Shown: piece by piece, positions 35,116 to 62,693 of the stretch | Layout: every line of letters begins with the position of its first letter | Numbering within the stretch: position 1 is the stretch's first letter | Notes under the pieces: model-generated | What the model saw: only the letters and a program-made list of their open reading frames with translations | The model's database searches: none | What the model was told of the DNA's origin: nothing | DNA from: Escherichia coli | GTDB taxonomy: Bacteria > Pseudomonadota > Gammaproteobacteria > Enterobacterales > Enterobacteriaceae | DNA: 64,000 bases | Assembly: GCF_003018235.1 (NCBI RefSeq) | Contig: NZ_CP027437.1 | Direction: 5' to 3' (one strand) | Made by a program: the position numbers and the translations under genes

Positions 35116-35196
35116 TCTATCCTCGATAAGTTCTGTTATTACAGTACGGGCACCAGTATCCTTTTGCGGATAACATCATTCAAATTGATTAATATA

Positions 35197-36132: not shown

Positions 36133-36384
36133 GTTTGAAAACGTAACAATGTGAACAGAAAATAAGGGCTTTCTAAATTAAATAATTCCTGTTGAATATC
36201 ATCGTTAGCGACAACATCATCCACGACTACCAGCAGATTTGCACCGATGGTGGATGTTCAGGTCACGCCAACCTGGCCATGAACCAGAAGGTTATCAATA
36301 CGGGTTAAGAGAATATTGAGTAATGTCATAGTCTTATCTCCTGTTATCCTTGTCGCCTTTCATTTTTCGTTCTTTTGGCGGCAA

Positions 36385-36413
36385 TAAAAAAGGCAGATAA
36401 TTAATTATCTGCC
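36385..36413 (-). terminator. Rho-independent terminator of the PTS/C-S lyase operon
   Basis: Hairpin ggcagataattaattatctgcc followed by a T-run on the minus strand. Confidence 0.55.
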
Positions 36414-36420
36414 CTGTGGT

Positions 36421-37593: not shown

Positions 37594-37605
37594 TTTTAAC
37601 TCCTG

Positions 37606-39177: not shown

Positions 39178-39314
39178 TTAATAGACTCCTTGATTTTTAT
39201 AAGCATAGTTTCAAGGTCATGAAAAAGTAATCATGACCTTTTATATTTGTGAGGTAAGTTGTTTTTTATTGTCTGAATACAGCTGCTAAGAAACTGTTAT
39301 TCACATATTTTTAA

Positions 39315-40184
<870 letters not shown>

Positions 40185-41339
40185 TTATGCCTGCCACGGA
40201 TGAATGATTACGCCTTGCACCACGCGGTTAACGGTGCCACTGGCTGATGGGGTATCCGGCGTATTGCCCATGTGCAGCGACTGCATCAGTGCAAACGTCT
40301 GGGCGTACATCAGGAAGCAAAATGCCTGCTCAACGTCGATAAAGTGACGGGACGGCGGCAGGATGATATGTGGACCGGCGGTAATAACGTCGTTGCTTTC
40401 CGCGGCGATAGCGATTACGCGCATCGCCTGGTTGTCACGACGAAGTTCAGCCAGCAGATCAAGATCATACTGGCGGGTGTAAGGGTGGCTGGAGACAAAT
40501 ACCACCACCAGCGTTTCGTTATCGACCAGCGATTTTGGTCCATGACGGAATCCGGTCGGGGAATCATAAAAGGCCGCCAGTTTACCCGCCGTCAGTTCCA
40601 GTACTTTCAGCGCCGACTCGCGTGCTGCGCCCTGTAAGCCACCGCTGCCGAGATAAACGATCCGTTTCCACGGTGCGTAACCAAACACACCTTCGCTGAA
40701 ATCGCTCAGTGAGGTTAGGATCGCCTGGCAACGATCCGCCACGTCGCGGAAGCTCTGGCTGTTGATCGTCTCAGGTGCGAAAACCGCGAGGCAGCTGGCC
40801 ATCATGGTGGTAATGCTGCTGGTCATCGCAAAGCCGCGATCGTGCGTTTCTGCGGGCATCAGCAGGGCAAACGCGTTGTCGCTGTTGATCGCGTTTTGGT
40901 AAAGAGCGCCCGCTTCGTTGCAGGTGATCGGCAGGTGATAGCACTCGGGTACAAATTGATTTGCCAGTTCCACGGCGGCGACGCTTTCCGGGCTGTTGCC
41001 GGATCGACCGAAGGAGATCAACAGCAGCGGATGAGCTGGATTCAGGTAGTCCATCGGATTGGTGACCAGATCGGTGGTCGGTACGGCGCTGAAGTTTTTA
41101 CCGGTATGGCTGGCGAGCCACGGCGCGATGATGTCACCGATAAATGCCGAGGTTCCGGCTCCGGTCAGGATTACCCGCAGATTCTCTTTGCGCAGTAACG
41201 GTTCAAGGAAGTTATTGAGCGCGGAACGTAGCGCGTCGATGTTGGTGAGTGAACGGATCCATGCGCGAGGCTGATGGCGGATCTCTTCTTCAGTCCATGT
41301 ACCGGTTGCGGCAGCAGCAGGGGTGTAATTTTCTGGCAT
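40185..41339 (-). CDS. agaS: Galactosamine-6-phosphate deaminase/isomerase AgaS (tandem SIS domains)
   Basis: 384-aa ORF MPENYTPAAAATGTWTEEEIRHQPRAW. Confidence 0.93.
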   Translation of the reverse strand: MPENYTPAAAATGTWTEEEIRHQPRAWIRSLTNIDALRSALNNFLEPLLRKENLRVILTGAGTSAFIGDIIAPWLASHTGKNFSAVPTTDLVTNPMDYLNPAHPLLLISFGRSGNSPESVAAVELANQFVPECYHLPITCNEAGALYQNAINSDNAFALLMPAETHDRGFAMTSSITTMMASCLAVFAPETINSQSFRDVADRCQAILTSLSDFSEGVFGYAPWKRIVYLGSGGLQGAARESALKVLELTAGKLAAFYDSPTGFRHGPKSLVDNETLVVVFVSSHPYTRQYDLDLLAELRRDNQAMRVIAIAAESNDVITAGPHIILPPSRHFIDVEQAFCFLMYAQTFALMQSLHMGNTPDTPSASGTVNRVVQGVIIHPWQA

Positions 41340-41379
41340 AACTCAATCCTTAGTCTGATGAACTTGACGTCGGGCGTTG

Positions 41380-41500
41380 TCGCTTTCGCTTACCTTTCGT
41401 TTCATTTCACTTGGTGATGTCTTTCGTTGATTAAAATCTATAGAAAAGAAACTGAAAGTTCAATGGAGAAAAAAGAAATAAAACGAAATTTGTGATCATT
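41380..41500. promoter_or_regulatory. agaS promoter region with AgaR-type operator repeats
   Basis: Clustered CTTTCGTTTC/GAAACGAAA-like half-sites (ctttcgcttacctttcgtttcatttcac, tctttcgttgat, aaaacgaaatttg), same motif family as the kbaZ-agaR spacer. Confidence 0.4.
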
Positions 41501-41556
41501 GAAAGAAAAGACAAGGGAAGATTAAAGGATGGCGTGATGACGTTGCTATGTTCACC

Positions 41557-41615
41557 GATTGCCGGATGCGGCGTACCGTAGGTCAAAGAAGACGCGTCAG
41601 CGTCGCATCCGATAC
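41557..41615. repeat. REP-like palindromic element
   Basis: gccggatgcggcgta ... gacgcgtcagcgtcgcatccg in the agaA-agaS spacer. Confidence 0.4.
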
Positions 41616-41688
41616 CCTGCACAGAGCACAACGAAAGAAAAAGAAAGGCCTTACGGGGGAAGTGAAGGCCCAATAAAGGAGCAAACCA

Positions 41689-42822
41689 TCAAAACGAAGC
41701 TAATTGACCCTGAATCCAGATTTGTTGCACATGCAGCCCGCTATCCAGCGCAACGATGCTGGCGCGTTTGCCCGGTTTAAGCGATCCCAGAACATCATCA
41801 ACACCCAGCATTTGCGCCGGATGCAGCGACGCCATATGGATGGCTTCGGCAGGCGTTACACCCGCCAACTCAACCATGTTGCGCACTGCCGCATCGACAG
41901 ACAGCGTACTGCCCGCCAGCCCACCGGACGCGGTACGGACAACGCCACCGTGCATCTGCACTTCTTCACCACATAACGTATAGCGACCATCCGGCATCCC
42001 GGCTGCCTGCATCGCGTCGGTGATGAGCACGATTCTCTCTTTTGCACAGCAACAACACAGCGACATCGCCGCCGGATGCACATGATGACCATCGGCTATC
42101 AGTTCCAGCCAGGCGCGCTTGTCCGTTAATCCCGCACCAACCATTCCCGGTTCGCGGTGATGTAAACCTGTCATCCCGTTATAGCAATGCACCAGGCCGT
42201 CGGCACCAGCGTCAAACGCGGCACGGGTTTGTTGCCAGGTCGCCGCGCTATGCCCCAGCATCACCCGTACGTTTTGCTGTTTAAGATGGCGGATGGCCTG
42301 CAATGCCCCTTCTTTTTCCGGTGCCAGCGCTACCACGCGCAAGGTGTGCTGAGAAACGGCAATCAACTGATCCAGCTCGGCAATTTCCAGCTCGCGAAAC
42401 AGCTCCGGCGGATGCGCGCCTTTATTCTGCGGCGTGAAGTATGGTCTTTCGAGATAACTCCCCAGCACTTGCGCACCAGGTCCGCCGCGTTGGCAACGTT
42501 GAGCAATACGTTTCAGCGCCGCATGAATGGTATTAAGCGGCGCGGTTACGGTGGTCGGTAACCAACTGCCGACACCTTCGCGTGCCTTGTGCATTGCCAG
42601 CTTGTCGAGCACATCCGGCGCGTCATCCATTACATCAACGCCCGCACCACCGTGTACATGGGTGTCGATGTAAGCGGGGCAGAGCAGTTCCGCATCGCGT
42701 TCAGTCACGCCCACTGGAATCGGTTCGATTGCTGCGATTACACCGTCAGCAATACGCAACTGATGGTCATCGAGCCATCCCTCTTCAGTCAGCAGCCTTC
42801 TGGCGCGCAGAACGTGTGTCAT
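41689..42822 (-). CDS. agaA: N-acetylgalactosamine-6-phosphate deacetylase AgaA (full length)
   Basis: ORF 41689..42843; NagA-like amidohydrolase; start taken as MTHVLRARR (ATG at 42822), which overlaps the agaF stop in an ATGA arrangement; full length here, whereas I recall agaA being truncated in K-12. Confidence 0.88.
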   Translation of the reverse strand: MTHVLRARRLLTEEGWLDDHQLRIADGVIAAIEPIPVGVTERDAELLCPAYIDTHVHGGAGVDVMDDAPDVLDKLAMHKAREGVGSWLPTTVTAPLNTIHAALKRIAQRCQRGGPGAQVLGSYLERPYFTPQNKGAHPPELFRELEIAELDQLIAVSQHTLRVVALAPEKEGALQAIRHLKQQNVRVMLGHSAATWQQTRAAFDAGADGLVHCYNGMTGLHHREPGMVGAGLTDKRAWLELIADGHHVHPAAMSLCCCCAKERIVLITDAMQAAGMPDGRYTLCGEEVQMHGGVVRTASGGLAGSTLSVDAAVRNMVELAGVTPAEAIHMASLHPAQMLGVDDVLGSLKPGKRASIVALDSGLHVQQIWIQGQLASF

Positions 42823-43253
42823 ATTCCTTCCTCGACCGGACATTCTTCATGGCAGCGGCCTAACTCGTCCACCAAACTGGTCAGCCCACGGTGTCCACAC
42901 TCCAGCGCCTGCACACGGAACTCTTCACCGCTTAACCCTTCGCGCTCCAGCACCATCTCCAGTAGCAGTTGCAAATTGGTGCCGGTGATCACTTCACAGC
43001 CCGGTTTTTGCATCGCCAGCGTTGAAGCTACGCGAAACGGCGTGCCGCCCAGCAAATCCGTCAGAAAAACAATGCCGTCTTCACAATCGAGTTGGGCGAT
43101 GGCCTCTTCAAGCTGCGATGTAAGCAGCGCGGTGCTTGAGGTTTCGGGAAAATCGATGGCAATAAACTGCGATTGCTCGCCGAGGATTTGCTTCATTGCT
43201 TTTTCTATGCCACTGGCAAACCCGCCATGCCCTGTCAAAATAATACTTAACAT
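42819..43253 (-). CDS. agaF: PTS EIIA component, mannose family (AgaF)
   Basis: 144-aa ORF MLSIILTGHGGFASG with the EIIA-Man phosphohistidine region. Confidence 0.88.
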   Translation of the reverse strand: MLSIILTGHGGFASGIEKAMKQILGEQSQFIAIDFPETSSTALLTSQLEEAIAQLDCEDGIVFLTDLLGGTPFRVASTLAMQKPGCEVITGTNLQLLLEMVLEREGLSGEEFRVQALECGHRGLTSLVDELGRCHEECPVEEGI

Positions 43254-43270
43254 CTAATACCTCATTGTAT

Positions 43271-44155
43271 TTAAAGGAAATGGCAGAATTTACCGACGAT
43301 GCCGAGAACCACGGTAACTGCAATCAGGCGCAGCGGACTCCAGCCGCGGCGTACCAGCCAGAACATGGTCAGGGTGTAGACCAGCGGTAAGAAGGCTGGC
43401 ATCAGTTTGTCGATAACATCAGCCTGTAACTTAACCACTGCGTCGCCAGCGGTGATTTCCAGCGTGGTGCTTAAACGAACATAGGTTGCCACCAGCGCGC
43501 CGATTACCGTCATCCCAACGATTGACGCAGCATGGCCGACTTTTTGGGTATTCGCTTTAATGAGTGGAATCGCCGCCACGCCCATGCGGTAAGCATAATG
43601 CGCCAGACCAAAACGCAGCCCCAGGTGTACCACGTTGAACAGCACAATAAAGACGACTGCGCCAAGAATAGAGCCTTGTAGCGCGAGGCTTGCGCCTATC
43701 CCGCCACAAATCGGCAGTAGCGTCAGCCAGAACATCGCATCGCCAATCCCGCCGAGCGGCGCACCGACGGCAATTTTGGTGCTCTGAATACTGTTAACGT
43801 CCTGCTTAGAACGCTCCATCGCAAGGATAATGCCGATAACAAACGTCACCAGAAACGGATGGGTATTGAAGAAACCCATATGCCCTTTCATGGCGCGCGC
43901 CAGGTCGCGTTTATTAGTGTGGATCTTTTTCAGAGCAGGCAGCAGACCGTACAACCAGCCGGAAGCCTGCATACGCTCGTAGTTAAAAGACGCTTGTAAC
44001 AGCATGGAACGCCAGGCGACGCGGTTGATATCTTTTTTCGTCAGCTCTGCGCCAATGCTCTGATCTTCATACACGTTTTCATTGACGCCTGTCAGCAGTG
44101 TTTCTTCGTTTTCACTGACGTTCGGCAGGGTGGTTTGATTAGATGCCATCTTCAA
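43271..44155 (-). CDS. agaE: PTS EIID component, mannose family (AgaE)
   Basis: 294-aa membrane ORF; EIID family. Confidence 0.88.
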   Translation of the reverse strand: MKMASNQTTLPNVSENEETLLTGVNENVYEDQSIGAELTKKDINRVAWRSMLLQASFNYERMQASGWLYGLLPALKKIHTNKRDLARAMKGHMGFFNTHPFLVTFVIGIILAMERSKQDVNSIQSTKIAVGAPLGGIGDAMFWLTLLPICGGIGASLALQGSILGAVVFIVLFNVVHLGLRFGLAHYAYRMGVAAIPLIKANTQKVGHAASIVGMTVIGALVATYVRLSTTLEITAGDAVVKLQADVIDKLMPAFLPLVYTLTMFWLVRRGWSPLRLIAVTVVLGIVGKFCHFL

Positions 44156-44918
44156 ATTCCTCTTTCTGTGCCGCAGGTTGAGTCGGTTCAGGAGATTTAC
44201 GCAGCAGATCGATCAGCGCCATCGCCAGCGCGGCGGCAGCAATAGCCAGCACCGGTAACTTGAGCCAGGCTGCGGCAACAAAGCCCAGGATGAAGTAGGG
44301 GATGTAGACGTTTTTCATCATGATTTTCAGCAGCACGGCAAAACCGATTGCTGGCATGATGCCGCCCGCGACGCCGAGGCCGTCGATTAATCGTTGCGGC
44401 AGGACATCAATGATGGTTTTGGCATGTTCTGCGCCGAAGTAGATAGGCAGGAAAGCGCAGAGAAAATAGAAAGTGCCGAGTGCCAGCAGTGCCAGATAGT
44501 TCACGCGTTCAATGCCGCGAGTATCGGCGTTCTCCGCCATCCGGTCGCAGCGGGACATTACGCCAGACATCACCGAGAACAGGAAGGTAATCCCCATCTG
44601 TACTGCGACAGCGAAAGGTACGGCGACACCGACCGCGACATCGGGTTTCACGCCAGTAGTAATGGCAAACGCCGTGCCGACGATAGTACCGATAATCACG
44701 TTAGGCGGTTGTGCGCCTGCCAGCGGGGCCAGCCCCATCCACACCAGTTCCAGCGTACCGCCGGTTAAAATACCGGTATGCAGATCGCCAAGTACCAGCC
44801 CGACTAACGGGCCGAGGACCACCGGGCGGTGCATATGGGTTAAGCCGTTAAACATATCCAGGCCAGCGATAAAGGCGATAATGCCCAACGCGAATGCCTG
44901 CAACAGACTGATTTCCAT
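44139..44918 (-). CDS. agaW: PTS EIIC component, mannose family (AgaW, full length)
   Basis: 259-aa hydrophobic ORF MEISLLQAFALGIIAFIAG. Confidence 0.88.
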   Translation of the reverse strand: MEISLLQAFALGIIAFIAGLDMFNGLTHMHRPVVLGPLVGLVLGDLHTGILTGGTLELVWMGLAPLAGAQPPNVIIGTIVGTAFAITTGVKPDVAVGVAVPFAVAVQMGITFLFSVMSGVMSRCDRMAENADTRGIERVNYLALLALGTFYFLCAFLPIYFGAEHAKTIIDVLPQRLIDGLGVAGGIMPAIGFAVLLKIMMKNVYIPYFILGFVAAAWLKLPVLAIAAAALAMALIDLLRKSPEPTQPAAQKEEFEDGI

Positions 44919-44928
44919 GATGAATCCC

Positions 44929-45402
44929 TCAAAGTAATTTAAAGAGGTCCACAGCAGGCTCTGTCGGGACGCCCTGAACGAAGCATTCCACCCCAGCGGC
45001 TTTCAGGTCGTTAAATGCTGCGATATCGCCCGCATCCACAGAAACCGTTTTGGCGATTTGTTGCTTGCCATTGGCGTAGTGCATATTGCCAACGTTAATG
45101 CGATTCACCGGAACGCCACCTTTCACCAGCGTCAGGAAATCGGCAGGTGTTTTACAAACCAGCAGGATTTTCTGTCGATCGGCGGCGCGATGAATGTTGT
45201 CGATGACTTTTTGCAGCGTCCAGAAACGTACGGCGATCCCTTCTGCCAGTACCATTTCCATCAGGTTTTGTTGTACCGGATCTTCGGCAACCTCATCGTT
45301 GGCTACCAGCACCAGATTTGCCCCCGCAAATCCGACCCACTGAACGCCGACCTGACCGTGAATCAAGCGTTCATCAATCCGGCTTAAAATAATATTTGGC
45401 AT
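44929..45402 (-). CDS. agaV: PTS EIIB component, mannose family (AgaV)
   Basis: ORF 44929..45438; start at MPNIILSRIDERLIHGQVG (EIIB-Man phosphohistidine loop); 157 aa. Confidence 0.88.
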   Translation of the reverse strand: MPNIILSRIDERLIHGQVGVQWVGFAGANLVLVANDEVAEDPVQQNLMEMVLAEGIAVRFWTLQKVIDNIHRAADRQKILLVCKTPADFLTLVKGGVPVNRINVGNMHYANGKQQIAKTVSVDAGDIAAFNDLKAAGVECFVQGVPTEPAVDLFKLL

Positions 45403-45424
45403 AGCGTGTTCCTCTTTGTTTTGC

Positions 45425-46705
45425 TTATTGGCCTTCACAGGCTGTGTGGTACTGCGCCAGGATGTCCTGAATATGGTTGATAATGAGTTCCCGTGGCGTC
45501 GGTTGCAGCTCGCCGGAGCGAACTTTCACGTATTGCAGCGGCAGATACTGGCTGATGAGCGGCAGCGGAATCGGTGAATCCGCCAGATTACGAACCAGAT
45601 GGGCGAAAGCGTCATCAATCTGGCTGTCCGGCCAGTAATAGCGCACGCGATCCGAGTAGCTATAACCACGCGCCAGACGACGCGCGTTGCCGTCACCGTG
45701 GTAGTGGCTTTGCCAGTATTCCGGGCGGTCGAGCATCACGTTTTCCAGCACCTGACGCAGACCGGAACAGGCTTTCGCTGGTACCAGTTCTTCTTCAATC
45801 GCCGCCAGAGAAAAAAGGGCTTCACGCAGGGCGAAGGTCAGCGCCGGGCCAACTTTCAGAATGGCAAAGTGGTCAATCACCAGCTGGCGCAACGATTGCG
45901 GCGTTTGGTAATCGGTAGAGTGCGCTTCGAAAATCAGCGTTTCGTAGTTTTCGACCATCTGGCTTAATGCGGTCGCTTTAGCTGGCTGATAATCAATAAC
46001 GTTGGTGTGATCGAATTCGACGCCGGGTTGAACCACCAGGGCAATAATGCGTGGCCAGATGGCATTCAGGCCCTGCTTTTCAAAGGCGTGGCGATGGGCT
46101 TCCAGTGTGGCGCGGGCGGCATCCGGCGTGGTGACCGCCAGCTCGCTTAAGGTTTCATGCGCGCCGCCAGGTACCGGTACTTCGGTACCAATGACATACT
46201 CCAGATCGGCCGCGCCAAAATGTTCACGGCAGGTTTCTTCCGCCACTTTCGCCAGACGAGCGGCGCGTTCGGCCACGATGTCATCAGTTAAGGGAATCGG
46301 ATCGTCCTGACAGGACATGCTGCAATCAAGGTGAATTTTTTTGAATCCTGCCGCCACGTAGCTTTTAATCAAATCATCGGCATTGGCCATTGCCTGAGCG
46401 GCAGGCAGGTTTTGCCAGCGGTTTGGCCCCAGATGGTCGCCACCCAGAATCAACGCATCCTGTGGGAAATTCAACGAGTCGGCGAGCTGACAAACAAAGC
46501 CGCGAAAATCGGCGGGCGTCATTCCGGTATAACCGCCGAACTGGTCCACCTGATTGGAGGTTGCTTCAATCAGTAACGGTGTTTGGTTTGCACTGGCGTA
46601 GCGGATTGCAGCTTCCAGCACCAGCGGATGTGCGGAACAAACGGCATAAATCCCATTTGTTTTGCCCTCTTTGTGCTGTCTCACCATTTCTGTCAGATGT
46701 TTCAC
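45425..46705 (-). CDS. kbaZ: Tagatose-bisphosphate aldolase accessory subunit KbaZ (AgaZ)
   Basis: 426-aa [40 protein letters not shown]. Confidence 0.93.
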
Positions 46706-46953
46706 TTTCCTCTCCAGTTCAGATTACTGCGATATTAATCTTTCGTTTTGTTTCAGTTGATACTGCGCCATGGTGAGATAAAAATAAAACGAAAGATAAT
46801 AGTTTTCTGATCTGATTCACAAAAGAAACATAATGAAAGCCACTGAAACGAGAGTAGCTTGCGCCAATGGGTAAGGTGGGCTTGCATTTGCTTAATAGAA
46901 AGGCGTTAATAGGCAAAACGAAATGAAACGAAAGTTTTACGAAAGGACTTACT
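46706..46953. promoter_or_regulatory. Divergent kbaZ/agaR promoter region with AgaR (DeoR-type) operator repeats
   Basis: Repeated CTTTCGTTT/AAACGAAAG motifs (ctttcgttttgtttcag, aaaacgaaagataa, aacgaaatgaaacgaaagttttacgaaagg). Confidence 0.5.
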
Positions 46954-47763
46954 ATGAGTAATACCGACGCTTCAGGCGAGAAGCGAGTGACAGGCACCAG
47001 TGAGCGACGAGAGCAGATCATTCAACGCCTGCGCCAGCAAGGAAGTGTGCAGGTTAACGATCTGTCGGCATTGTATGGCGTATCTACTGTGACGATCCGC
47101 AACGATCTGGCGTTTCTGGAAAAGCAGGGGATCGCTGTGCGTGCCTATGGCGGCGCGTTGATCTGCGATAGCACGACGCCGTCAGTCGAGCCATCAGTGG
47201 AAGATAAAAGCGCGCTGAACACCGCAATGAAACGCAGCGTTGCGAAAGCTGCCGTTGAGTTGATTCAGCCAGGTCATCGGGTAATCCTCGATTCCGGGAC
47301 CACCACTTTTGAGATTGCTCGTCTGATGCGCAAGCACACTGACGTAATTGCGATGACCAACGGTATGAACGTGGCTAATGCGTTGCTGGAAGCGGAAGGC
47401 GTTGAGCTGCTGATGACCGGCGGGCATTTGCGCCGTCAGTCGCAATCTTTTTACGGCGATCAGGCTGAACAATCGCTGCAAAATTACCACTTCGATATGC
47501 TGTTTCTTGGCGTAGATGCGATCGATCTGGAGCGCGGCGTCAGCACGCATAATGAAGATGAAGCCCGTTTAAACCGTCGGATGTGCGAAGTTGCGGAACG
47601 GATCATCGTGGTCACCGATTCCAGTAAGTTCAATCGTTCCAGTTTACATAAGATCATTGATACTCAACGTATCGACATGATCATTGTTGATGAAGGCATT
47701 CCTGCGGATAGTCTGGAAGGACTGCGAAAGGCTGGGGTTGAAGTGATTCTGGTCGGGGAGTGA
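46954..47763 (+). CDS. agaR: DeoR-family repressor AgaR
   Basis: 269-aa ORF; N-terminal HTH ([35 protein letters not shown]) and DeoR C-terminal sensor domain. Confidence 0.93.
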
Positions 47764-47817
47764 GAAAGGGTGCCCGCTGGTCAACACGAATGCGTTCGGC
47801 GGGCATTGTGAACACCA

Positions 47818-48282
47818 TCAATGGGTTTCTTCTGTCTCTCGGGTGAGGGTTTCCCAGTCGGCAGGAGGATGTCCTCTTTTTAACATTTTGCTGAATACGG
47901 TATAGGCATCTGTTTTTTTACCGTAGGTGCGCAGAGTGTTTTCATCGTTCATCCATCCCAGAATGATGACTTTCTCTTTTTCACTATAACGAAAGAAGAG
48001 ACGATAACGACCAGCACCAAATTTTACCCGTGACCAGTCTTTATTTTTCCCAGAGCCTAACGACTTGCCATGACGGAATGCCGGTGATGATGGATTGACC
48101 GTGATATGCTCCTCAATCACTTTATGGACTACCGCCAATAACTTTGTGGCGGCTTTTCTCTGATAATTTTCAGGATCTTTTCCCTTTAATATCTCGACTT
48201 CGGCAACTAAAGCGTCGTAGGTTTCCTGAAAACAGGGATGAGCATATAGCGCCCAACCATTAACCCTTTGTGGAAAATCCAT
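47818..48282 (-). CDS. yhaV: Type II toxin YhaV (ribosome-dependent mRNA interferase)
   Basis: 154-aa ORF MDFPQRVNGWALYAHPCFQETYDALVAEVE; stop/start overlap with prlF. Confidence 0.93.
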   Translation of the reverse strand: MDFPQRVNGWALYAHPCFQETYDALVAEVEILKGKDPENYQRKAATKLLAVVHKVIEEHITVNPSSPAFRHGKSLGSGKNKDWSRVKFGAGRYRLFFRYSEKEKVIILGWMNDENTLRTYGKKTDAYTVFSKMLKRGHPPADWETLTRETEETH

Positions 48283-48617
48283 TATTCGTCGTCGCCAATC
48301 TCATCATCAATGTTGACGTCCAGGCCAGCGACCAGTTTCTTTCCTTGCTGAATGTTGAATGGACGAGTTTTTTGCGGGTTGTTCTGGATATCTGCATCCA
48401 GAAAACGCAAAAATGCATTCATGGTATGATCCTCCTGTTCATCTCCCAGTCGGCACATAAATACTTGCCCACCAGGCAGAATTTCGTAATGAATGCTGTC
48501 CTGGCCTGGCTTCAGTTTTAAGGCCTCACGCACTGGCGCGGGGATAGTTGTTTGTCCGCGTATCGTGACCTTTGATTCAGTGGTCAGTACAGCGTGAGAG
48601 CGAGCATTAGCGGGCAT
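48282..48617 (-). CDS. prlF: Type II antitoxin PrlF (SohA), AbrB/SpoVT-fold
   Basis: 111-aa ORF MPANARSHAVLTTESKVTIRGQTTIPAPVREAL with acidic C-terminus. Confidence 0.93.
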   Translation of the reverse strand: MPANARSHAVLTTESKVTIRGQTTIPAPVREALKLKPGQDSIHYEILPGGQVFMCRLGDEQEDHTMNAFLRFLDADIQNNPQKTRPFNIQQGKKLVAGLDVNIDDEIGDDE

Positions 48618-48765
48618 GATTCACTGTCCTTTTACAGCCTGTTTTCTGCTCAAATTATAAGCTTGAACTAAGGTAATGCAAATGCATTATTAATGGACGT
48701 GGGGACTTTAAACAATAAAAACATGGCACTAAGGCCATGTTTTGCGAGGGACGTTCCAAAAGAAA

Positions 48766-50337
48766 TCAGGTCACCGGTGCCGGGTTAAACACCGCCAGCT
48801 GGTTATGCAGTCCCCATTGATCTGAGAAGGTTTTCTTCTTCCCGCTGGCGACGTCGAGAATAAAGTGGAACAACTTCCAGCCCACCTCTTCAATAGTTTC
48901 TTCGCCAGTAGCGATGGTGCCCGCATTAATATCCATTAAATCAAACCAGCGGTTCGCCAGCTCGGTGCGGGTCGCCATTTTAATGACGGGTACCGCCATC
49001 AGGCCGTACGGCGTACCGCGACCGGTCGTAAACACTTGCACGGTAATCCCTGAAGCCACCTGTTGTGTGCCACAGACAAAATCGCTGGCTGGCGTCGCGG
49101 CGTAAATTAATCCGCGTTTAGTCGGGCGTTGACCGGGCGACAGCACTTCAACAATTGCACTTTTACCCGATTTAGCAATGGAGCCGAGCGCTTTCTCCAC
49201 CACGTTTGCCAGACCGCCTTTCTTGTTGCCCGGCGAAGGGTTGGCGCTGCGGTCGGTTTTTCCCATATTGAGATAGTTATCGTACCACTCCATCTCCTCC
49301 AGCAGCCGTTTGCCGACCTCTTTGTTCACTGCGCGTGGTGTCAGCAGATGGATCGCGTCACGCACTTCCGTGACTTCTGAAAACATCACCGTTGCGCCGC
49401 AGCGCACCAGTAGATCAGACGCATACCCAACCGCCGGGTTTGCCGTTACGCCAGAAAACGCATCGCTGCCGCCGCACTGCATGCCGACAACCAGTTCTGA
49501 AGCCGGACAGGTTTCTCGCTGCCGTTGATTCAGTTTGTGCAAATGGCGTTCGGCGACCTGCAAAATATCCTCGACCATGGACTGAAAGCCGACATGCTTT
49601 TCATCCTGCAAACTGACAATGCTGGCGCTTTCTACTGGAATAGCTTGCACATCATCTGTTCCAGTCAGCAGGCGCTCAGGCTGCAACTTTTCACAACCCA
49701 GACCAATCACCATTACTTCGCCGCCAAAGTTAGGGTTCAGCGAAATATTGTGGATGGTACGAATAGGCACAACTGCCGCCGGTGCGTTAATCGCCACGCC
49801 ACAGCCGTACAAATGATTCAGCCCCACCACGCCATCGACGTTCGGGTATTTCGGTAGCAGATCGCGTTCAATGATTTTTACTACATAGTCCACCACGCCT
49901 GCCACACAGTGGACGCTGGTGGTGATGCCGAGCAGGTTTTTGGTGCCCACGCTGCCATCGGCATTGCGATAGCCCTCAAAGGTGTATCCTTCCAGTGGCG
50001 GTAAGGGTTCCGGGACTTTGGTTGCCAGTGGCAGCGTGTGTAACGGTGGCGCTTCCGGTAGCACAACCATTGATTCGTCGATCCAGCTTCCGCGTGGGAT
50101 TGCGCGCACGGCGTAACCAATCACTTCGCCATAACGAATAATTTCACCATTAGCCGGAATGTCCAGCAATGCGACTTTATGCCCCTGGGGAATATGTTCA
50201 ATTAATTCCAGCCCATCCGGAAAACGCGTTCCTGCTTTCAGGCCATTATCATTAACAATAATTGCCACATTATCTGTGTCGTGAACTTTTATATAAAACG
50301 CAGTTGGCGTTTCTTGTCTGATTTCGATGTTGGCCAT
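48766..50337 (-). CDS. garD: Galactarate dehydratase
   Basis: 523-aa [31 protein letters not shown]. Confidence 0.95.
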
Positions 50338-50711
50338 TGTGCAATATTCTCCAGCCAGGGGTTATTAAAATGAGGACCTGGTCTCATTTAAAAATAAATG
50401 ACTTCATTGGGTGAAATAAGAATGTCAGGAGTTTAAAGGCAGAAATGTGATCAATGTCAATCATTTCAGGGATTGCAGTGCCGCGCGGTAAGGTAAAGCG
50501 CAAATCTGTGCTTTAGCGCGCAACCTTATGTGCATATGCTCAAAATAATATTTAAATAGTATTAATTAAATTAGCATTTGCACAATGATTATTATTCTCG
50601 CGCTGCTTATACTAATTCCCGAGTTCATTGCCGTAACGGCATAAATAAAACTCATAAATAACACCTTCCCCATAATAATAAAAATCAGCATAAGTACCCG
50701 AGGTAAATAAA

Positions 50712-52046
50712 ATGATTCTGGACACCGTTGACGTAAAAAAGAAAGGCGTGCATACCCGCTATTTAATATTACTGATTATTTTTATTGTTACCGCCGTTAA
50801 CTACGCCGATCGTGCAACGCTGTCTATTGCTGGTACCGAAGTGGCAAAAGAGTTGCAGTTAAGTGCGGTTTCGATGGGTTACATCTTCTCTGCTTTTGGC
50901 TGGGCCTACTTGCTGATGCAAATCCCCGGCGGCTGGCTGCTTGATAAGTTTGGTTCGAAAAAAGTTTACACCTACAGCCTCTTTTTCTGGTCGCTATTCA
51001 CCTTCCTGCAAGGCTTTGTTGATATGTTCCCGCTGGCCTGGGCAGGGATCTCCATGTTCTTTATGCGCTTTATGCTGGGGTTCTCGGAAGCGCCATCATT
51101 CCCGGCGAACGCCCGTATTGTCGCCGCCTGGTTCCCAACGAAAGAACGTGGTACTGCCTCCGCCATCTTTAACTCGGCGCAATATTTCTCGCTGGCGCTC
51201 TTTTCGCCGCTGCTTGGCTGGCTGACTTTCGCCTGGGGCTGGGAGCACGTCTTTACCGTTATGGGGGTAATTGGTTTTGTGCTGACGGCGCTGTGGATCA
51301 AGTTGATTCATAACCCGACAGATCACCCACGTATGTCTGCGGAAGAGCTGAAGTTTATCTCAGAAAATGGCGCGGTGGTCGATATGGACCACAAAAAGCC
51401 GGGCAGTGTGGCAGCAAGCGGTCCCAAACTGCATTACATCAAGCAATTGCTCTCTAACCGCATGATGCTGGGCGTATTTTTCGGACAATATTTTATCAAC
51501 ACCATCACCTGGTTCTTCCTCACCTGGTTCCCAATTTATCTGGTGCAGGAAAAAGGCATGTCGATTCTGAAAGTGGGTCTGGTCGCCTCGATTCCGGCAC
51601 TGTGTGGCTTTGCGGGCGGCGTGCTGGGAGGTGTCTTCTCGGATTATCTGATCAAACGCGGTTTGTCCCTGACCCTGGCACGTAAGCTACCGATTGTGCT
51701 GGGAATGTTGCTGGCTTCCACCATCATCTTATGTAACTACACCAACAACACCACGCTGGTGGTCATGCTGATGGCGCTGGCTTTCTTTGGCAAAGGATTT
51801 GGTGCGCTGGGCTGGCCGGTAATTTCTGACACCGCGCCGAAAGAGATTGTTGGCCTCTGCGGCGGCGTCTTTAACGTCTTTGGCAATGTTGCCTCCATTG
51901 TCACTCCACTGGTGATTGGCTATCTGGTAAGTGAACTGCACTCCTTCAATGCAGCACTGGTTTTCGTGGGATGTTCAGCGCTGATGGCGATGGTCTGCTA
52001 CCTCTTTGTAGTTGGCGACATTAAACGTATGGAATTGCAGAAATAA
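50712..52046 (+). CDS. garP: Galactarate/glucarate/glycerate MFS transporter
   Basis: 444-aa ORF; 12-TM MFS protein; divergent from garD. Confidence 0.93.
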   Translation: MILDTVDVKKKGVHTRYLILLIIFIVTAVNYADRATLSIAGTEVAKELQLSAVSMGYIFSAFGWAYLLMQIPGGWLLDKFGSKKVYTYSLFFWSLFTFLQGFVDMFPLAWAGISMFFMRFMLGFSEAPSFPANARIVAAWFPTKERGTASAIFNSAQYFSLALFSPLLGWLTFAWGWEHVFTVMGVIGFVLTALWIKLIHNPTDHPRMSAEELKFISENGAVVDMDHKKPGSVAASGPKLHYIKQLLSNRMMLGVFFGQYFINTITWFFLTWFPIYLVQEKGMSILKVGLVASIPALCGFAGGVLGGVFSDYLIKRGLSLTLARKLPIVLGMLLASTIILCNYTNNTTLVVMLMALAFFGKGFGALGWPVISDTAPKEIVGLCGGVFNVFGNVASIVTPLVIGYLVSELHSFNAALVFVGCSALMAMVCYLFVVGDIKRMELQK

Positions 52047-52061
52047 GCAAAGGTATAAGCG

Positions 52062-52832
52062 ATGAATAACGATGTTTTCCCGAATAAATTCAAAGCCGCA
52101 CTGGCTGCGAAACAGGTACAAATTGGTTGCTGGTCAGCACTCTCTAACCCGATTAGCACTGAAGTTCTTGGTTTGGCTGGGTTTGACTGGCTGGTGCTGG
52201 ATGGCGAACATGCGCCAAACGATATCTCCACGTTTATTCCGCAGTTAATGGCCCTGAAAGGCAGCGCCAGCGCGCCAGTAGTGCGAGTGCCGACCAACGA
52301 GCCGGTAATTATTAAGCGTCTTCTGGATATCGGTTTCTATAACTTCCTGATTCCTTTTGTAGAAACAAAAGAGGAAGCAGAGCAGGCGGTGGCATCAACC
52401 CGTTATCCACCGGAAGGCATTCGCGGCGTCTCCGTTTCTCACCGCGCCAATATGTTTGGCACCGTGGCGGATTATTTCGCTCAGTCGAACAAGAACATCA
52501 CCATTCTGGTCCAGATAGAAAGTCAGCAGGGCGTAGATAACGTCGATGCCATTGCCGCTACCGAAGGCGTAGACGGTATCTTCGTCGGCCCCAGCGATCT
52601 GGCTGCGGCATTAGGCCATCTCGGCAATGCCTCGCACCCGGATGTACAAAAAGCAATTCAGCATATTTTTAACCGTGCCAGTGCGCACGGCAAACCCAGC
52701 GGTATCCTCGCACCGGTCGAAGCCGATGCGCGTCGTTATCTGGAATGGGGTGCGACGTTTGTGGCTGTCGGCAGCGATCTCGGCGTCTTCCGCTCTGCCA
52801 CTCAGAAACTGGCTGATACCTTTAAAAAATAA
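52062..52832 (+). CDS. garL: 5-keto-4-deoxy-D-glucarate aldolase
   Basis: 256-aa [27 protein letters not shown]; HpcH/HpaI aldolase family. Confidence 0.95.
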
Positions 52833-52867
52833 CCACCACCGCAACAAGAGAGATGATTGATATGACT

Positions 52868-53752
52868 ATGAAAGTTGGTTTTATTGGCCTGGGGATTATG
52901 GGTAAACCAATGAGTAAAAACCTTCTGAAAGCAGGTTACTCGCTGGTGGTTGCTGACCGTAACCCAGAAGCTATTGCTGACGTGATTGCTGCAGGTGCAG
53001 AAACAGCCTCTACGGCTAAAGCGATCGCTGAACAGTGCGACGTCATCATAACCATGCTGCCAAACTCCCCTCATGTGAAAGAGGTGGCGCTGGGTGAGAA
53101 TGGCATTATTGAAGGCGCGAAGCCAGGTACGGTATTGATCGATATGAGTTCTATCGCACCGCTGGCAAGCCGTGAAATCAGCGAAGCTCTGAAAGCGAAA
53201 GGCATTGATATGCTGGACGCCCCGGTGAGCGGCGGTGAACCGAAAGCCATCGACGGTACGCTGTCAGTGATGGTGGGCGGCGACAAGGCTATTTTCGACA
53301 AATACTATGATTTGATGAAAGCGATGGCGGGTTCCGTGGTGCATACCGGGGAAATTGGTGCAGGTAACGTCACCAAACTGGCGAATCAGGTCATTGTGGC
53401 GCTGAATATTGCCGCGATGTCAGAAGCGTTAACGCTGGCAACTAAAGCGGGCGTTAACCCGGACCTGGTTTATCAGGCAATTCGCGGTGGGCTGGCGGGC
53501 AGTACCGTGCTGGATGCCAAAGCGCCGATGGTGATGGACCGCAACTTCAAGCCGGGCTTCCGCATTGATCTGCATATTAAGGATCTGGCGAATGCGCTGG
53601 ATACTTCTCACGGCGTCGGCGCGCAACTGCCGCTCACAGCTGCGGTTATGGAGATGATGCAGGCACTGCGTGCAGATGGTTTAGGAACGGCGGATCATAG
53701 CGCCCTGGCTTGCTACTACGAAAAACTGGCGAAAGTCGAAGTTACTCGCTAA
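52868..53752 (+). CDS. garR: Tartronate semialdehyde (2-hydroxy-3-oxopropionate) reductase
   Basis: ORF 52853..53752; MKVGFIGLGIMGKPMSKNL Rossmann motif from the ATG at 52868. Confidence 0.93.
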   Translation: MKVGFIGLGIMGKPMSKNLLKAGYSLVVADRNPEAIADVIAAGAETASTAKAIAEQCDVIITMLPNSPHVKEVALGENGIIEGAKPGTVLIDMSSIAPLASREISEALKAKGIDMLDAPVSGGEPKAIDGTLSVMVGGDKAIFDKYYDLMKAMAGSVVHTGEIGAGNVTKLANQVIVALNIAAMSEALTLATKAGVNPDLVYQAIRGGLAGSTVLDAKAPMVMDRNFKPGFRIDLHIKDLANALDTSHGVGAQLPLTAAVMEMMQALRADGLGTADHSALACYYEKLAKVEVTR

Positions 53753-53848
53753 TGACGTCGTGCCCGGATGGCGTATTGCAATCCGGGCCTGGAATCCAGG
53801 CCGAATAAGAGAAACGCCCTCCGGCGTCATGTGGTAACAGGCATAGGT

Positions 53849-54994
53849 ATGAAAATCGTAATCGCCCCAGACTCTTATAAAGAAAGTTTATCTGCCAGCG
53901 AGGTTGCGCAGGCGATAGAAAAAGGATTTCGGGAAATTTTTCCTGATGCACAGTACGTTTCTGTTCCGGTTGCCGACGGTGGCGAAGGAACGGTGGAAGC
54001 GATGATTGCAGCCACCCAGGGTTCCGAACGTCACGCCTGGGTTACAGGGCCGCTGGGCGAGAAAGTGGATGCCAGTTGGGGGATCTCCGGCGATGGCAAA
54101 ACCGCGTTTATTGAAATGGCGGCGGCCAGTGGGCTGGAGCTGGTACCTGCGGAAAAACGCGATCCACTCGTGACCACTTCACGCGGCACAGGCGAGTTAA
54201 TCCTGCAGGCGCTGGAGAGCGGTGCAACAAACATTATTATCGGCATTGGCGGCAGCGCTACAAATGATGGCGGCGCAGGCATGGTACAGGCGCTGGGGGC
54301 GAAATTATGCGACGCCAACGGCAATGAAATTGGTTTTGGCGGCGGTAGTCTTAATACTCTGAATGATATTGATATTTCCGGCCTCGATCCGCGCTTAAAA
54401 GATTGCGTCATTCGCGTCGCTTGTGATGTCACCAATCCGCTGGTGGGTGATAACGGCGCATCGCGCATCTTTGGCCCACAAAAGGGAGCCAGTGAAGCGA
54501 TGATTGTCGAGCTGGACAATAACCTCTCTCACTATGCCGATGTCATTAAAAAAGCGCTGCATGTTGATGTGAAAGATGTCCCCGGCGCAGGAGCTGCGGG
54601 CGGTATGGGCGCGGCGCTGATGGCGTTTCTTGGTGCAGAACTGAAAAGTGGTATTGAAATAGTCACTACGGCGCTGAATCTGGAGGAACATATTCACGAT
54701 TGTACGCTGGTGATCACCGGTGAAGGGCGTATTGACAGCCAGAGTATTCACGGCAAGGTTCCGATTGGCGTCGCAAACGTGGCGAAAAAGTACCATAAAC
54801 CGGTGATTGGCATTGCGGGTAGCCTGACCAATGATGTTGGCGTTGTACATCAGCATGGCATTGATGCGGTCTTCAGCGTATTGACCAGCATTGGTACGTT
54901 GGACGAAGCATTCCGCGGGGCTTATGACAATATTTACCGTGCTTCACGTAATATCGCCGCGACACTGGCGATTGGAATGCGCAACGCGGGGTGA
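53849..54994 (+). CDS. garK: Glycerate 2-kinase
   Basis: ORF 53768..54994; MKIVIAPDSYKESLSASEVAQAIEKGF from the ATG at 53849; 381 aa. Confidence 0.93.
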   Translation: MKIVIAPDSYKESLSASEVAQAIEKGFREIFPDAQYVSVPVADGGEGTVEAMIAATQGSERHAWVTGPLGEKVDASWGISGDGKTAFIEMAAASGLELVPAEKRDPLVTTSRGTGELILQALESGATNIIIGIGGSATNDGGAGMVQALGAKLCDANGNEIGFGGGSLNTLNDIDISGLDPRLKDCVIRVACDVTNPLVGDNGASRIFGPQKGASEAMIVELDNNLSHYADVIKKALHVDVKDVPGAGAAGGMGAALMAFLGAELKSGIEIVTTALNLEEHIHDCTLVITGEGRIDSQSIHGKVPIGVANVAKKYHKPVIGIAGSLTNDVGVVHQHGIDAVFSVLTSIGTLDEAFRGAYDNIYRASRNIAATLAIGMRNAG

Positions 54995-55026
54995 CAAGGG
55001 CGCGCAAACCCTCTATACTGCGCGCC

Positions 55027-55403
<377 letters not shown>

Positions 55404-55413
55404 GTTTTACGTA

Positions 55414-55438
55414 AAAACCCGCTTCGGCGGGTTTTTGC
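55414..55438 (+). terminator. rnpB terminator
   Basis: Hairpin aaaacccgcttcggcgggttttt. Confidence 0.65.
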
Positions 55439-55509
55439 TTTTGGTGCACAGGGTAAGATGAATAAATATCTACGGTATTAATAATAGACTTTGTAAGAAG
55501 TTATTAAGT

Positions 55510-56697
55510 CTATATTGCATTTAAAAGGTCGTAATTATACGTATAGTCCTCTCTGGTAAAATATTGATTCTCTGAGTTATAAGCTTCATATGTATTATAT
55601 TTTACGACTTCAAAGCAATTGTCTGAAGAATTTTCGTCTTTCTCGAGTGTATTATCTGGAAGGAATTCCTCTGAGCTAGAGTCCTCTATGTTTAAATCTG
55701 TATTGTAATTAATTTTTGGATCGATTAGATAAGCATTTCCTTTGACGCTTTCATAATCTTTAATGATTATATCGATGTAATAATCTATTTTTTCTGATGA
55801 GAATGCTTTCATCTCTGGTAATCTAATTCTGTTCAAGTAATTGTTAATTTTCGATGAGCTTTTATATATTTCTTTTGTTAATTCATTTTCTAATTCATCT
55901 GTTAGAGTTGCTCTTGGTATAGATTCTATAATTGCAAGTCTCATAATTTTTAATTGTTCTTCGGTAATATCCCCAAGCGCATTTAAACAACTTTCGACAA
56001 GCTTAATTTTTTCTTCAGAATACATATCGCTAATGCTTGTTATAACAGGCGTTATTTTTAGTAAATAATCCCAGGAGATTGTGGCGTTTTGTGTTGAACT
56101 AACGAAATTTACCTGAAACATGTTGGCATTAGTAAAATCTGTGTCATCCAATTTAAAAGGATTTAAAATTGTATTGGCCATATGTTTATCTGTAAAATCA
56201 TAAAGTTCTAAATCGACATTCCGTAAGTCCAGAGAGGATAGATCAACTATACCTCCAGTCCCACAACTAAAGATTACGTTCAACCTCCTGATTTCATTGT
56301 AAATGTCTTTCAATGGGCAATTAACATTGATATTGCCTGTGGATATTTCCTGGTTTTTTAACGGTTCATTAATGGTAAGTTCACAGGTATTGTCTGATCG
56401 TTGAATAATTCGGGCGTTATAACCTAAAAAATCCAGACGAAGAGACGAGTCATTATAAAGAATTACATTTTGTAAGTACGCTAATTCTTTTTGAAAATCA
56501 CCAGTGATAATGCATTTCCCACCTGGTTGTAACGCGTTAAGTAAAGTGACCATTTGAACAGAGGTCTGTTTTAGTTTTTCTATGCCTGGTGCTAGTGCTT
56601 CGAGGTTATTTCCTATGGGGCTTTCAGGAAGATCATTCATTTTTCGACGGGCTAAATCACAACTAATATCATTACCAATTGATGAAACAGGGGACAT
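55510..56697 (-). CDS. yhaC: Uncharacterised pentapeptide-repeat-containing protein YhaC
   Basis: 395-aa ORF; very AT-rich; central run of pentapeptide-like repeats (DLSSLDLRNVDLELYDFTDKHMANTILNPFKLDDTDFTNANMF); position next to rnpB matches K-12 yhaC. Confidence 0.85.
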   Translation of the reverse strand: MSPVSSIGNDISCDLARRKMNDLPESPIGNNLEALAPGIEKLKQTSVQMVTLLNALQPGGKCIITGDFQKELAYLQNVILYNDSSLRLDFLGYNARIIQRSDNTCELTINEPLKNQEISTGNINVNCPLKDIYNEIRRLNVIFSCGTGGIVDLSSLDLRNVDLELYDFTDKHMANTILNPFKLDDTDFTNANMFQVNFVSSTQNATISWDYLLKITPVITSISDMYSEEKIKLVESCLNALGDITEEQLKIMRLAIIESIPRATLTDELENELTKEIYKSSSKINNYLNRIRLPEMKAFSSEKIDYYIDIIIKDYESVKGNAYLIDPKINYNTDLNIEDSSSEEFLPDNTLEKDENSSDNCFEVVKYNTYEAYNSENQYFTREDYTYNYDLLNAI

Positions 56698-56718
56698 TAT
56701 TTTATCCTTTATAAATAA

Positions 56719-57288
56719 TCAATAAAAATCATTATTAAAATGATCGGGTGAAAAAAAGAGAATTTGCCAACAATCTGAAGGAATGGCTGTTTTATTAAAG
56801 TACGTAGGGGGGGTTAAGATGGCTTCTTTTCGGGTGAATTTTGCACAATACTTAGAAATCGTCTCCTTAATATATTCCAGCTCTTTTTTATTGACGACTG
56901 AGCAAGTACATTGTTCACCAAAAGGTGCAAAAGTGCCTACATCTAATGTTTGTATGATGTAATCGTCATGTTCTCCTGTAGAAATATCTATGATGAATGG
57001 ACTCATATTTTCCGGTTGGATTCGGATCATGACAGAAGGAATATCGCCTTGATAGAAATTCAATGCAGTAATTGCAGATAATACTCTCCGCAGTTCATTA
57101 CTTATACTGTAAATTTTATTAACGTCATTGGTGGAGACAATTTCTGCAAACTTTCTTTTTACCGTCCAATAATCAATATTTCTATTGTGATTGTTAACCA
57201 CTGCGTGCATTGGCGGGATTGAAGGGTGAAAAATATGTGCAATTGGGAAGCCTTTCATTGATGCCTGCCTTGTCATCATGACAAACAA
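56719..57288 (-). CDS. yhaB: Uncharacterised protein YhaB
   Basis: 189-aa AT-rich ORF immediately downstream of yhaC on the same strand; start is uncertain. Confidence 0.75.
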   Translation of the reverse strand: MFVMMTRQASMKGFPIAHIFHPSIPPMHAVVNNHNRNIDYWTVKRKFAEIVSTNDVNKIYSISNELRRVLSAITALNFYQGDIPSVMIRIQPENMSPFIIDISTGEHDDYIIQTLDVGTFAPFGEQCTCSVVNKKELEYIKETISKYCAKFTRKEAILTPPTYFNKTAIPSDCWQILFFSPDHFNNDFY

Positions 57289-57513
57289 TAATAGATGCTT
57301 ATTTTCCTCGCAGGGTTCTTTCGCACTATCAAAAAACGCTCATTTACCCGGCGTTACAGTAAACGAAGCAACATTCTGTGGCCTACGCCGATCAAAAGCT
57401 CTGTGAAAATTTCCCTTGTTGTCTTTGTCTGACCTTATCGCGGCGACCAGCAATTATTCGTTTTGTGATCCTCAACACAAAATGCTATTCGTCACCTATG
57501 AGGGGAGAAGAAT

Positions 57514-57858
57514 TTATGGAAAACGATTGCATTCACAAAATGACGTCCTGTCAGAAGAGAAAAAGTTGACGTTAATCAATTGTTCGAGATGATCAATATT
57601 TGTATTCGAAATTTTAAAATATTGATAAAATAAATGTTTGTTCTCCAACAAATAGCGTGAAAAAATGTGACGTGCCGCATTATTTATCGCTGAAAATGAT
57701 TTATTTATAATAAAATTTGAGAACTTGCTCATTAAATTTAACTCAAAATTTGCCTGGTAATTATCCGGTAATTGCTTGAAATATGGTCTCAGCCCCTTTT
57801 TTGTATTAACCACATAACGAATGATGTTATCGCCATAAAATATGGTTATCCCCGTCAT
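57514..57858 (-). CDS. tdcR: tdc operon activator TdcR (ORF here is longer than I recall for K-12)
   Basis: ORF 57514..57870 divergent from tdcA, about 190 bp upstream; AT-rich; assignment is by position; boundaries uncertain. Confidence 0.45.
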   Translation of the reverse strand: MTGITIFYGDNIIRYVVNTKKGLRPYFKQLPDNYQANFELNLMSKFSNFIINKSFSAINNAARHIFSRYLLENKHLFYQYFKISNTNIDHLEQLINVNFFSSDRTSFCECNRFP

Positions 57859-58046
57859 TTTTTTTGACAAAAATCAGGGTTTATGCTGATTTTTATACTT
57901 TAACTTATTGATATATAAAGATATTTAATTGGAATAACGATACCATGGAAAGTATTGAAAGTTAATTTGTGAGTGGTCGCACATATCCTGTTCATTTCAT
58001 TTTGATACACTTCATGCCGTCAATGAGGTAATTAACGTAGGTCGTT

Positions 58047-58985: not shown

Positions 58986-59083
58986 TTATTTGTTTTTATT
59001 TAAACATAAATAATCCACCTGTCTGTTTTGCAGGTGTCGGTTACGGTTACCTACATATTTAATTCAGGCTAAGAGGTTTTATA

Positions 59084-60073: not shown

Positions 60074-60091
60074 TTAATTCGTTGAGGATAG

Positions 60092-61426
<1,335 letters not shown>

Positions 61427-61451
61427 TCCGTAACTCAGGATGAGAAAAGAG

Positions 61452-62660: not shown

Positions 62661-62693
62661 TTTAGTTGAAGTATTGTAGAGAGATTATTTTTC

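Follow-up and report, generated by a model that had tools for sequence, protein, structure and literature searches.

Does the small two-gene locus between agaR and garD in this stretch of Escherichia coli DNA form a complete and working toxin–antitoxin module, and does it differ from the one already known? The PrlF–YhaV pair has been studied since 2007, and the prlF gene since the early 1990s. The stretch analyzed here (64,000 nucleotides of contig NZ_CP027437.1, assembly GCF_003018235.1) is referred to as the window. A preliminary description made from the letters of the window had proposed an intact type II module at this place. We put at about 95% the probability that the locus is the canonical chromosomal type II toxin–antitoxin operon prlF-yhaV of E. 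coli, intact and presumably functional. The system and its location are both already known, and the allelic differences are trivial.

Gene order and control region

The open reading frames were taken from a six-frame list for the window, and the features of the locus are collected in Table 1. Two small genes are co-oriented with the antitoxin gene first, the best promoter-like site lies upstream of prlF, and RefSeq annotates prlF and yhaV in the equivalent place in thousands of E. coli genomes. The placement of an intact pair between agaR and garD was thus borne out, both frames being found where the preliminary description had put them. That description named no strand; both genes are on the minus strand. 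Its statement that the antitoxin precedes the toxin is correct because of this orientation, as it holds in the direction of transcription. The junction, read on the minus strand as GAC GAC GAA TAA TGG, also agrees with the overlap of one nucleotide that had been noted: base 48282 is common to the prlF stop codon TAA (48284..48282) and the yhaV start codon ATG (48282..48280).

Over 1101 nt, the alignment with K-12 MG1655 shows neither gaps nor frameshifts nor premature stop codons. The K-12 pair, PrlF (SohA, b3129) and YhaV (b3130), shares with the window the position relative to garD and agaR, the protein lengths of 111 and 154 amino acids and the TAATG overlap, and its promoter, operator and Shine-Dalgarno region are identical. 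Across prlF and yhaV, eight nucleotides differ, with one amino-acid change in each protein.

Table 1. Positions of the genes and candidate control elements of the prlF-yhaV locus in the window
Feature	Position	Strand	Basis or remark
agaR	46954..47763	+	269-aa ORF; name from RefSeq annotation of near-identical E. coli genomes
Segment missing from empty-site genomes (yhaV, prlF, promoter, spacers)	47760..48763	.	about 70 nt of unrelated sequence instead (EC5654)
GC-rich hairpin (GCCCGC...GCGGGC) between the convergent yhaV and agaR stops	47771..47805	.	predicted fold
yhaV CDS, predicted RelE/ParE-superfamily ribonuclease toxin	47818..48282	-	ATG start, 154-aa ORF
TAATG stop/start overlap of prlF and yhaV	48280..48284	-	read directly from the sequence
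prlF (sohA) CDS, presumed antitoxin and autorepressor	48282..48617	-	ATG start, 111-aa ORF
Heptamer repeat hot spot in prlF	48346..48359	-	here TTCAACA TTCAGCA; alignment to K-12
Shine-Dalgarno-like AAGGA, 9 nt before the prlF ATG	48627..48631	-	identical in K-12 and strain 1190
Sigma-70-type promoter-like site	48654..48682	-	consensus scan, 10/12, best in the region
Perfect palindrome TAATGCA-NN-TGCATTA over the -35 hexamer	48674..48689	.	candidate PrlF or PrlF-YhaV operator
garD terminator hairpin, followed by a T-rich tail	48718..48743		terminator scan
garD	48766..50337	-	523-aa ORF; name from RefSeq annotation of near-identical E. coli genomes

The promoter-like site combines a -35 hexamer TTTGCA (48682..48677), a 17-nt spacer and a -10 hexamer TATAAT (48659..48654), and its -10 region can be aligned in homologous loci. 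Sites as weak as the one at the junction of prlF and yhaV (9/12) are no more numerous than chance predicts. The perfect palindrome occurs once in the 64-kb window, against 0.01 copies expected by chance, and each of the nine module-bearing loci that were fetched has a single copy upstream of prlF. These include homologues with PrlF identities of 76% (Enterobacteriaceae bacterium G50), 60% (Salmonella enterica) and 50% (metagenomic), in which the intergenic DNA around the palindrome is otherwise barely alignable. No second copy was found near the promoter when up to three mismatches were allowed, the matches in the window being of chance number. Being unique in the window and conserved down to 50% PrlF identity, the palindrome is probably the autoregulatory operator, a candidate that agrees with the binding of a PrlF2-YhaV4 complex to a palindrome in the prlF promoter, as reviewed previously (PMC7781912).

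The yhaV ATG is not preceded by a recognizable Shine-Dalgarno-like motif, and the 1-nt overlap recurs in K-12 and in the Salmonella (60%) and G50 (76%) homologues. Together, these features are consistent with translational coupling of yhaV to prlF, which would fit the single transcript and the higher translation of the antitoxin reported for the K-12 module (PMC5535158). At the other end of the operon, the hairpin between the convergent genes (-20.1 kcal/mol, z = -1.32, not significant) was not called by a terminator consensus scan; it may act as a bidirectional terminator for yhaV and agaR. An Rfam scan of the whole window identified no RNA family in or adjoining the module.

Families and predicted folds of the two proteins

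The pair had been described as a known chromosomal one with similarity to PrlF and YhaV, and the curated family models support this. PrlF matches Pfam PF15937 over residues 14-110 (141 bits, cut-off 32, E=1.5e-41) and the NCBIfam equivalog NF007429 over residues 1-111 (168.3 bits, cut-off 125). YhaV matches Pfam PF11663 over residues 12-150, corresponding to positions 1-137 of the 138 in the model (180.2 bits, cut-off 35, E=2.6e-53), and none of the NCBIfam models. Both proteins are 99% identical to those of K-12 MG1655 and free of indels, the sole substitutions being M99L in PrlF and T31I in YhaV.

Could these substitutions have inactivated the toxin or the antitoxin, leaving two intact genes as a harmless remnant of a decayed module? 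Decay is common among chromosomal toxin–antitoxin modules, this one is absent from about 5% of complete E. coli genomes, and each protein does carry one change relative to the K-12 proteins that have been studied. The changes, however, fall at positions that vary within the families: L99 is present in several PrlF homologues, and in the YhaV family alignment no residue reaches a majority at position 31 (x in the consensus), I31 being found in E. coli strain 1190 as well. The exact PrlF sequence recurs on at least 1000 public contigs and the exact YhaV sequence on 44, under these names in both cases. When 1.84 billion cluster representatives were searched exhaustively, 976 clusters of the YhaV family were returned at E <= 0.001. 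In 54 aligned full-length members, diverse and sharing 33-55% identity with the query, nine columns are invariant: P64, R85, R94, F96, W110, N112, R118, D125 and Y127. The YhaV of the window keeps all nine. As the promoter, the Shine-Dalgarno-like motif and the operator are also unchanged from K-12, we consider decay extremely unlikely and retain the reading of an intact, presumably functional operon.

The AlphaFold2 model of YhaV, built from the 54-member alignment, is of high confidence (pLDDT 95.8, pTM 0.90). Compared with solved structures using Foldseek, its top 47 matches are RelE/ParE-superfamily toxins or RelE-domain proteins, with PfiT (1.2e-4) and E. coli RelE (2.1e-3) as the best and HigB2, Mycobacterium tuberculosis RelE1 and RelE2, Thermus thermophilus RelE, YoeB and ParE among the others. 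The best matches have E-values of 1e-4 to 1e-2 and target-normalized TM scores of at most 0.79. These E-values are modest and the query-normalized TM scores low (0.3-0.5) because YhaV is longer than the toxins it matches. By sequence, neither YhaV alone nor its family profile found a true relative among solved structures; matches to ThreeFoil and Zuotin in that search were due to chance. For a RelE/ParE-type fold of YhaV, the support is therefore confined to structure prediction.

The preliminary description had assigned PrlF to the AbrB fold. Residues 15-39 (KVTIRGQTTIPAPVREALKLKPG) do match models of this type, as the description would lead one to expect, but all matches remain below threshold: 19.7 bits for PF04014 (MazE/SpoVT-AbrB type, cut-off 24.7) and 27.2 bits for TIGR01439 (AbrB family, cut-off 28.3). 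PF04014 was matched by 11 of 13 PrlF-family members. The PrlF-family profile found only three matches among solved structures, all AbrB-family regulators, with E-values of about 0.5; sequence searches turned up no solved structure of PrlF itself, nor of YhaV. The AlphaFold2 model, obtained from a 13-sequence alignment, was too poor for a fold search (pLDDT 48). The shallow alignment is one cause of this, and an obligate-dimer fold and a disordered C-terminal half are probably further ones. A profile comparison of the PrlF family with the sequence of E. coli MazE aligned only the acidic NIDDE motif with 6% probability and was uninformative. For the AbrB classification of PrlF we therefore rely on earlier work, namely Coles et al. 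(2005) and Schmidt et al. (2007), both cited in PMC7781912, with which the sub-threshold matches are consistent.

The module can be compared with two groups of better-known systems. RelBE and other RelE/ParE systems likewise consist of two genes in an autoregulated operon, the antitoxin gene leading, and the toxins RelE, HigB and YoeB cut mRNA on the ribosome. The RelE, HigB, YoeB, ParE and PfiT toxins have a core fold like that predicted for YhaV. Their sequence identity to it is 9-17%, undetectable by sequence search of solved structures. YhaV exceeds them in length by about 60 residues and has a long helical hairpin at the N terminus of the model. It is paired with an antitoxin classed as AbrB/MazE-like, not RelB-like, in a complex reported as PrlF2-YhaV4 (PMC7781912). 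In the MazE/AbrB/SpoVT antitoxins (PF04014), the first strand and loop align with PrlF residues 15-39, below curated thresholds; the partner toxin of PrlF is, according to the model, RelE-like and not MazF-like.

Published studies of the K-12 proteins, which are 99% identical, let us propose how the module would operate. One sigma-70 promoter would give rise to a single bicistronic prlF-yhaV mRNA. PrlF would be translated from its own Shine-Dalgarno site and YhaV by coupling across the overlap, so that the antitoxin would exceed the toxin. PrlF would dimerize through its N-terminal AbrB/MazE-like domain, and its C-terminal part, ending in a conserved acidic tail, would neutralize YhaV. The PrlF2-YhaV4 complex would bind the palindrome over the -35 box and repress the operon. 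Upon loss of PrlF, with Lon implicated, free YhaV would cleave mRNA in a translation-dependent manner, resulting in growth arrest.

Several of these steps can be set beside the two reviews. Lon has been implicated in prlF phenotypes (PMC5408214, PMC7781912), and the activity of YhaV requires conserved arginines (PMC5408214). The reviews disagree on whether YhaV needs the ribosome: its cleavage of mRNA is described as ribosome-dependent and frame-dependent in one (PMC7781912) and as ribosome-independent in vitro in the other (PMC5408214). For the window, we infer the endoribonuclease activity of YhaV, the growth arrest and the neutralization by PrlF from the 99% identity to the K-12 protein and from these reviews.

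Distribution and genomic setting

Strain 1190 of E. coli is collinear with most of the window, the identity being 98.4-99%. Of 5426 complete E. coli genomes, 5161 carry the 800-nt module (5136 hold at least 80% of it) and 5362 its flanking DNA. A few genomes have an empty site, such as isolate EC5654, in which agaR adjoins garD. In E. coli, the module thus behaves as a discrete presence/absence segment of about 1 kb.

The homologues of Enterobacteriaceae bacterium G50 and Salmonella enterica share with the window the two-gene order, the 1-nt overlap and the upstream operator palindrome. The G50 pair adjoins garD, whereas the Salmonella pair lies away from garD and agaR, beside phage-type ANT and YfjT genes. 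From the latter setting, we conclude that the PrlF–YhaV family moves between contexts.

This mobility raises the question of whether the module serves mainly as an abortive-infection system against phages or as a stabilizer of mobile DNA, and not as a regulator of growth that responds to stress. Several other toxin–antitoxin systems defend against phage, and both the Salmonella neighborhood and the presence or absence of the segment as a unit in E. coli would suit such a role. The immediate surroundings argue otherwise, as the module sits among core metabolic genes with no adjoining mobile-element genes in the window, and no PADLOC defense model was matched by PrlF or YhaV (E <= 0.01). Nor do the two reviews and the evolution study that deal with the pair report a phage phenotype for it (PMC7781912, PMC5408214, PMC7686311). 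We regard a mainly anti-phage or DNA-stabilizing function as quite unlikely and keep to the canonical toxin–antitoxin operon.

The preliminary description had singled out the pair as the only clearly defense- or stress-related module in the window. It is the only toxin–antitoxin module apparent there, but the part on stress was overstated. By collinearity with the annotated strain 1190, the window also holds ftsH, deaD, pnp, nlpI, yhbO (a stress-linked deglycase), yhbQ (DNA-damage response) and dolP (outer-membrane stress).

The heptamer repeat in prlF and the value of the locus

One of the nucleotide differences from K-12 is synonymous and falls within a repeat. Nucleotides 259-272 of K-12 prlF form a perfect tandem repeat, TTCAACA TTCAACA, of which the second copy reads TTCAGCA in the window. 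The G at 48348 leaves Q91 unchanged (CAA to CAG) and interrupts the repeat. The 42-mer that spans the hot spot in the window is absent from all 5426 complete E. coli genomes, of which 3868 have the K-12 version. An exact 59-mer from prlF likewise had no match among species-representative genomes. Over 24 kb, no complete E. coli genome is more than 98.9% identical to the window, and with about 1% divergence from all of them a private substitution at 48348 is by itself unremarkable.

The repeat is known as a site of mutation. Duplication of TTCAACA was the sole prlF mutation among the prlF-mutant lines of one laboratory-evolution study, in which it increased expression of the operon and changed tolerance to carbenicillin, aztreonam, D-valine and hydrogen peroxide (PMC7686311). 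Similar consequences are described for prlF1, the classical allele, which has an insertion at the 3' end of the gene (PMC7781912). Publicly deposited PrlF variants, most of them of Shigella sonnei or E. coli origin, repeat the heptapeptide FNIQHST up to ten times and contain between 5 and about 30 heptamers, some in frame and others out of frame. Because FNIQHST corresponds to exactly three translated heptamers, the heptamer appears to be a natural variable-number repeat. No relevant publication connecting prlF or sohA to typing by VNTR or MLVA was found in a literature search.

These observations suggest a further possibility, namely that the heptamer works as a slipped-strand contingency switch and that the lineage of the window has been "locked" by the A-to-G change at 48348, with a lower rate of switching. 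We put this forward tentatively, as an idea that has the odds against it. If true, one extra heptamer would produce a prlF1-type frameshift, derepress the operon and alter tolerance to beta-lactams and oxidants.

The same mutants bear on what the operon mainly does. Its principal output might be PrlF itself as a regulator, acting in Lon-dependent export and envelope stress and in the down-regulation of ompF, with YhaV as a mere co-repressor. The discovery of prlF through Lon-dependent export and htrA-suppressor phenotypes speaks for this (PMC7781912, PMC5408214), as do the shifts in resistance profiles and the lower ompF and sodB mRNA levels caused by the recurrent prlF frameshift (PMC7686311). 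The authors of the latter study, however, credit the mRNA effects at least partly to the RNase activity of YhaV (PMC7686311), and the strict conservation of toxin residues argues for selection on that activity. We find PrlF doubtful as the main output; regulation by PrlF would in any case add to the toxin–antitoxin mechanism without replacing it, and the canonical operon remains our preferred reading.

What, then, does the locus contribute? An intact textbook pair adds no new biology, and its value is mainly that of a control. The module in its usual place confirms the chromosomal aga–gar region of E. coli, as the preliminary description had suggested in proposing it as a positive control for the identification of the locus, and it demonstrates that a small two-gene module and its overlap can be recognized from sequence alone. 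For specialists, three minor points may be of use: the candidate operator footprint of 16 bp, the presence or absence of the module as a segment of about 1 kb, and the rare synonymous change in the mutational hot spot of prlF.

Heptamer repeat in prlF

In E. coli K-12, prlF carries a tandem TTCAACA TTCAACA, which is where a recurrent 7-bp duplication arises (PMC7686311). Alignment shows that the window reads TTCAACA TTCAGCA at this site (48346..48359, prlF nt 259-272). The G responsible, at 48348, is synonymous, and none of the 5426 complete E. coli genomes carries it. An exact prlF 59-mer had no match among species-representative genomes, and for window positions 40000..64000 the top identity to any complete E. 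coli genome is at most 98.9%. The window stems from an E. coli-like lineage that neither genome set includes.

In natural prlF alleles, none of them from the window, the heptamer copy number ranges from 5 to about 30. These expanded alleles, found chiefly in Shigella sonnei and E. coli, encode the public PrlF variants P0005, P0006, P0008, P0022, P0023, P0025, P0026, P0031 and P0087, in which the expansions, both in frame and out of frame, translate to FNIQHST repeats. Some of these variants are wrongly named 'HsdR'. The heptamer site thus looks like a variable-number repeat, and our literature search found no VNTR typing using prlF or sohA.

Structured RNAs and other genes in the window

An Rfam scan of the whole window matched the expected RNA families and, in addition, two tRNAs; none lay within or adjoining the prlF-yhaV module. 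Other genes (see table) occupy 34057..39333 in place of agaI-agaD-agaC-agaB of the annotated E. coli strain 1190, an arrangement common to only 30 of the 5426 complete E. coli genomes (~97.5% identity), O145:H28 strains among them. A 317-aa accessory ORF between tRNA-Leu and argG, at the position occupied by yhbX in strain 1190, is present in 236/5426 complete E. coli genomes. Its N-terminus gave a sub-threshold match to an XRE-type HTH, ~270 residues matched no family, and the PADLOC matches were weak and confined to the HTH region.

Structured RNAs and other genes of the window
Feature	Coordinates	Strand	Source or context
RNase P RNA (rnpB)	55027..55403		Rfam
SraG sRNA	15123..15294		Rfam
S15 leader	14779..14893		Rfam
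naRNA4	13196..13266		Rfam
rimP leader	8397..8497		Rfam
Secreted MBL-fold hydrolase	34159..35115	-	
Truncated LysR-type ORF	35309..35914	+	
MalY/PatB-like aminotransferase	36421..37593	-	
MalX-like PTS IIBC gene	37606..39177	-	
317-aa accessory ORF	5406..6359	-	flanked by tRNA-Leu (5245..5328) and argG

Distribution of the prlF-yhaV module

A homologue of the module in Salmonella enterica (L005/L006, 1852..3797), with a PrlF identity of 60%, has the same 1-nt gene overlap and an identical palindrome, the probable operator. Because a phage ANT-domain gene lies directly upstream and a YfjT-family gene nearby, we suggest that this homologue is carried on a prophage-like island.

Within E. coli, the module is missing from ~5% of complete genomes. 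At the corresponding locus of strain EC5654 (L011), agaR adjoins garD and the counterpart of window 47760..48763 is missing, the ~1-kb toxin-antitoxin segment being swapped for ~70 nt of unrelated DNA that holds its own hairpin. We conclude that the agaR-garD junction of EC5654 is an empty-site allele of the prlF-yhaV segment.
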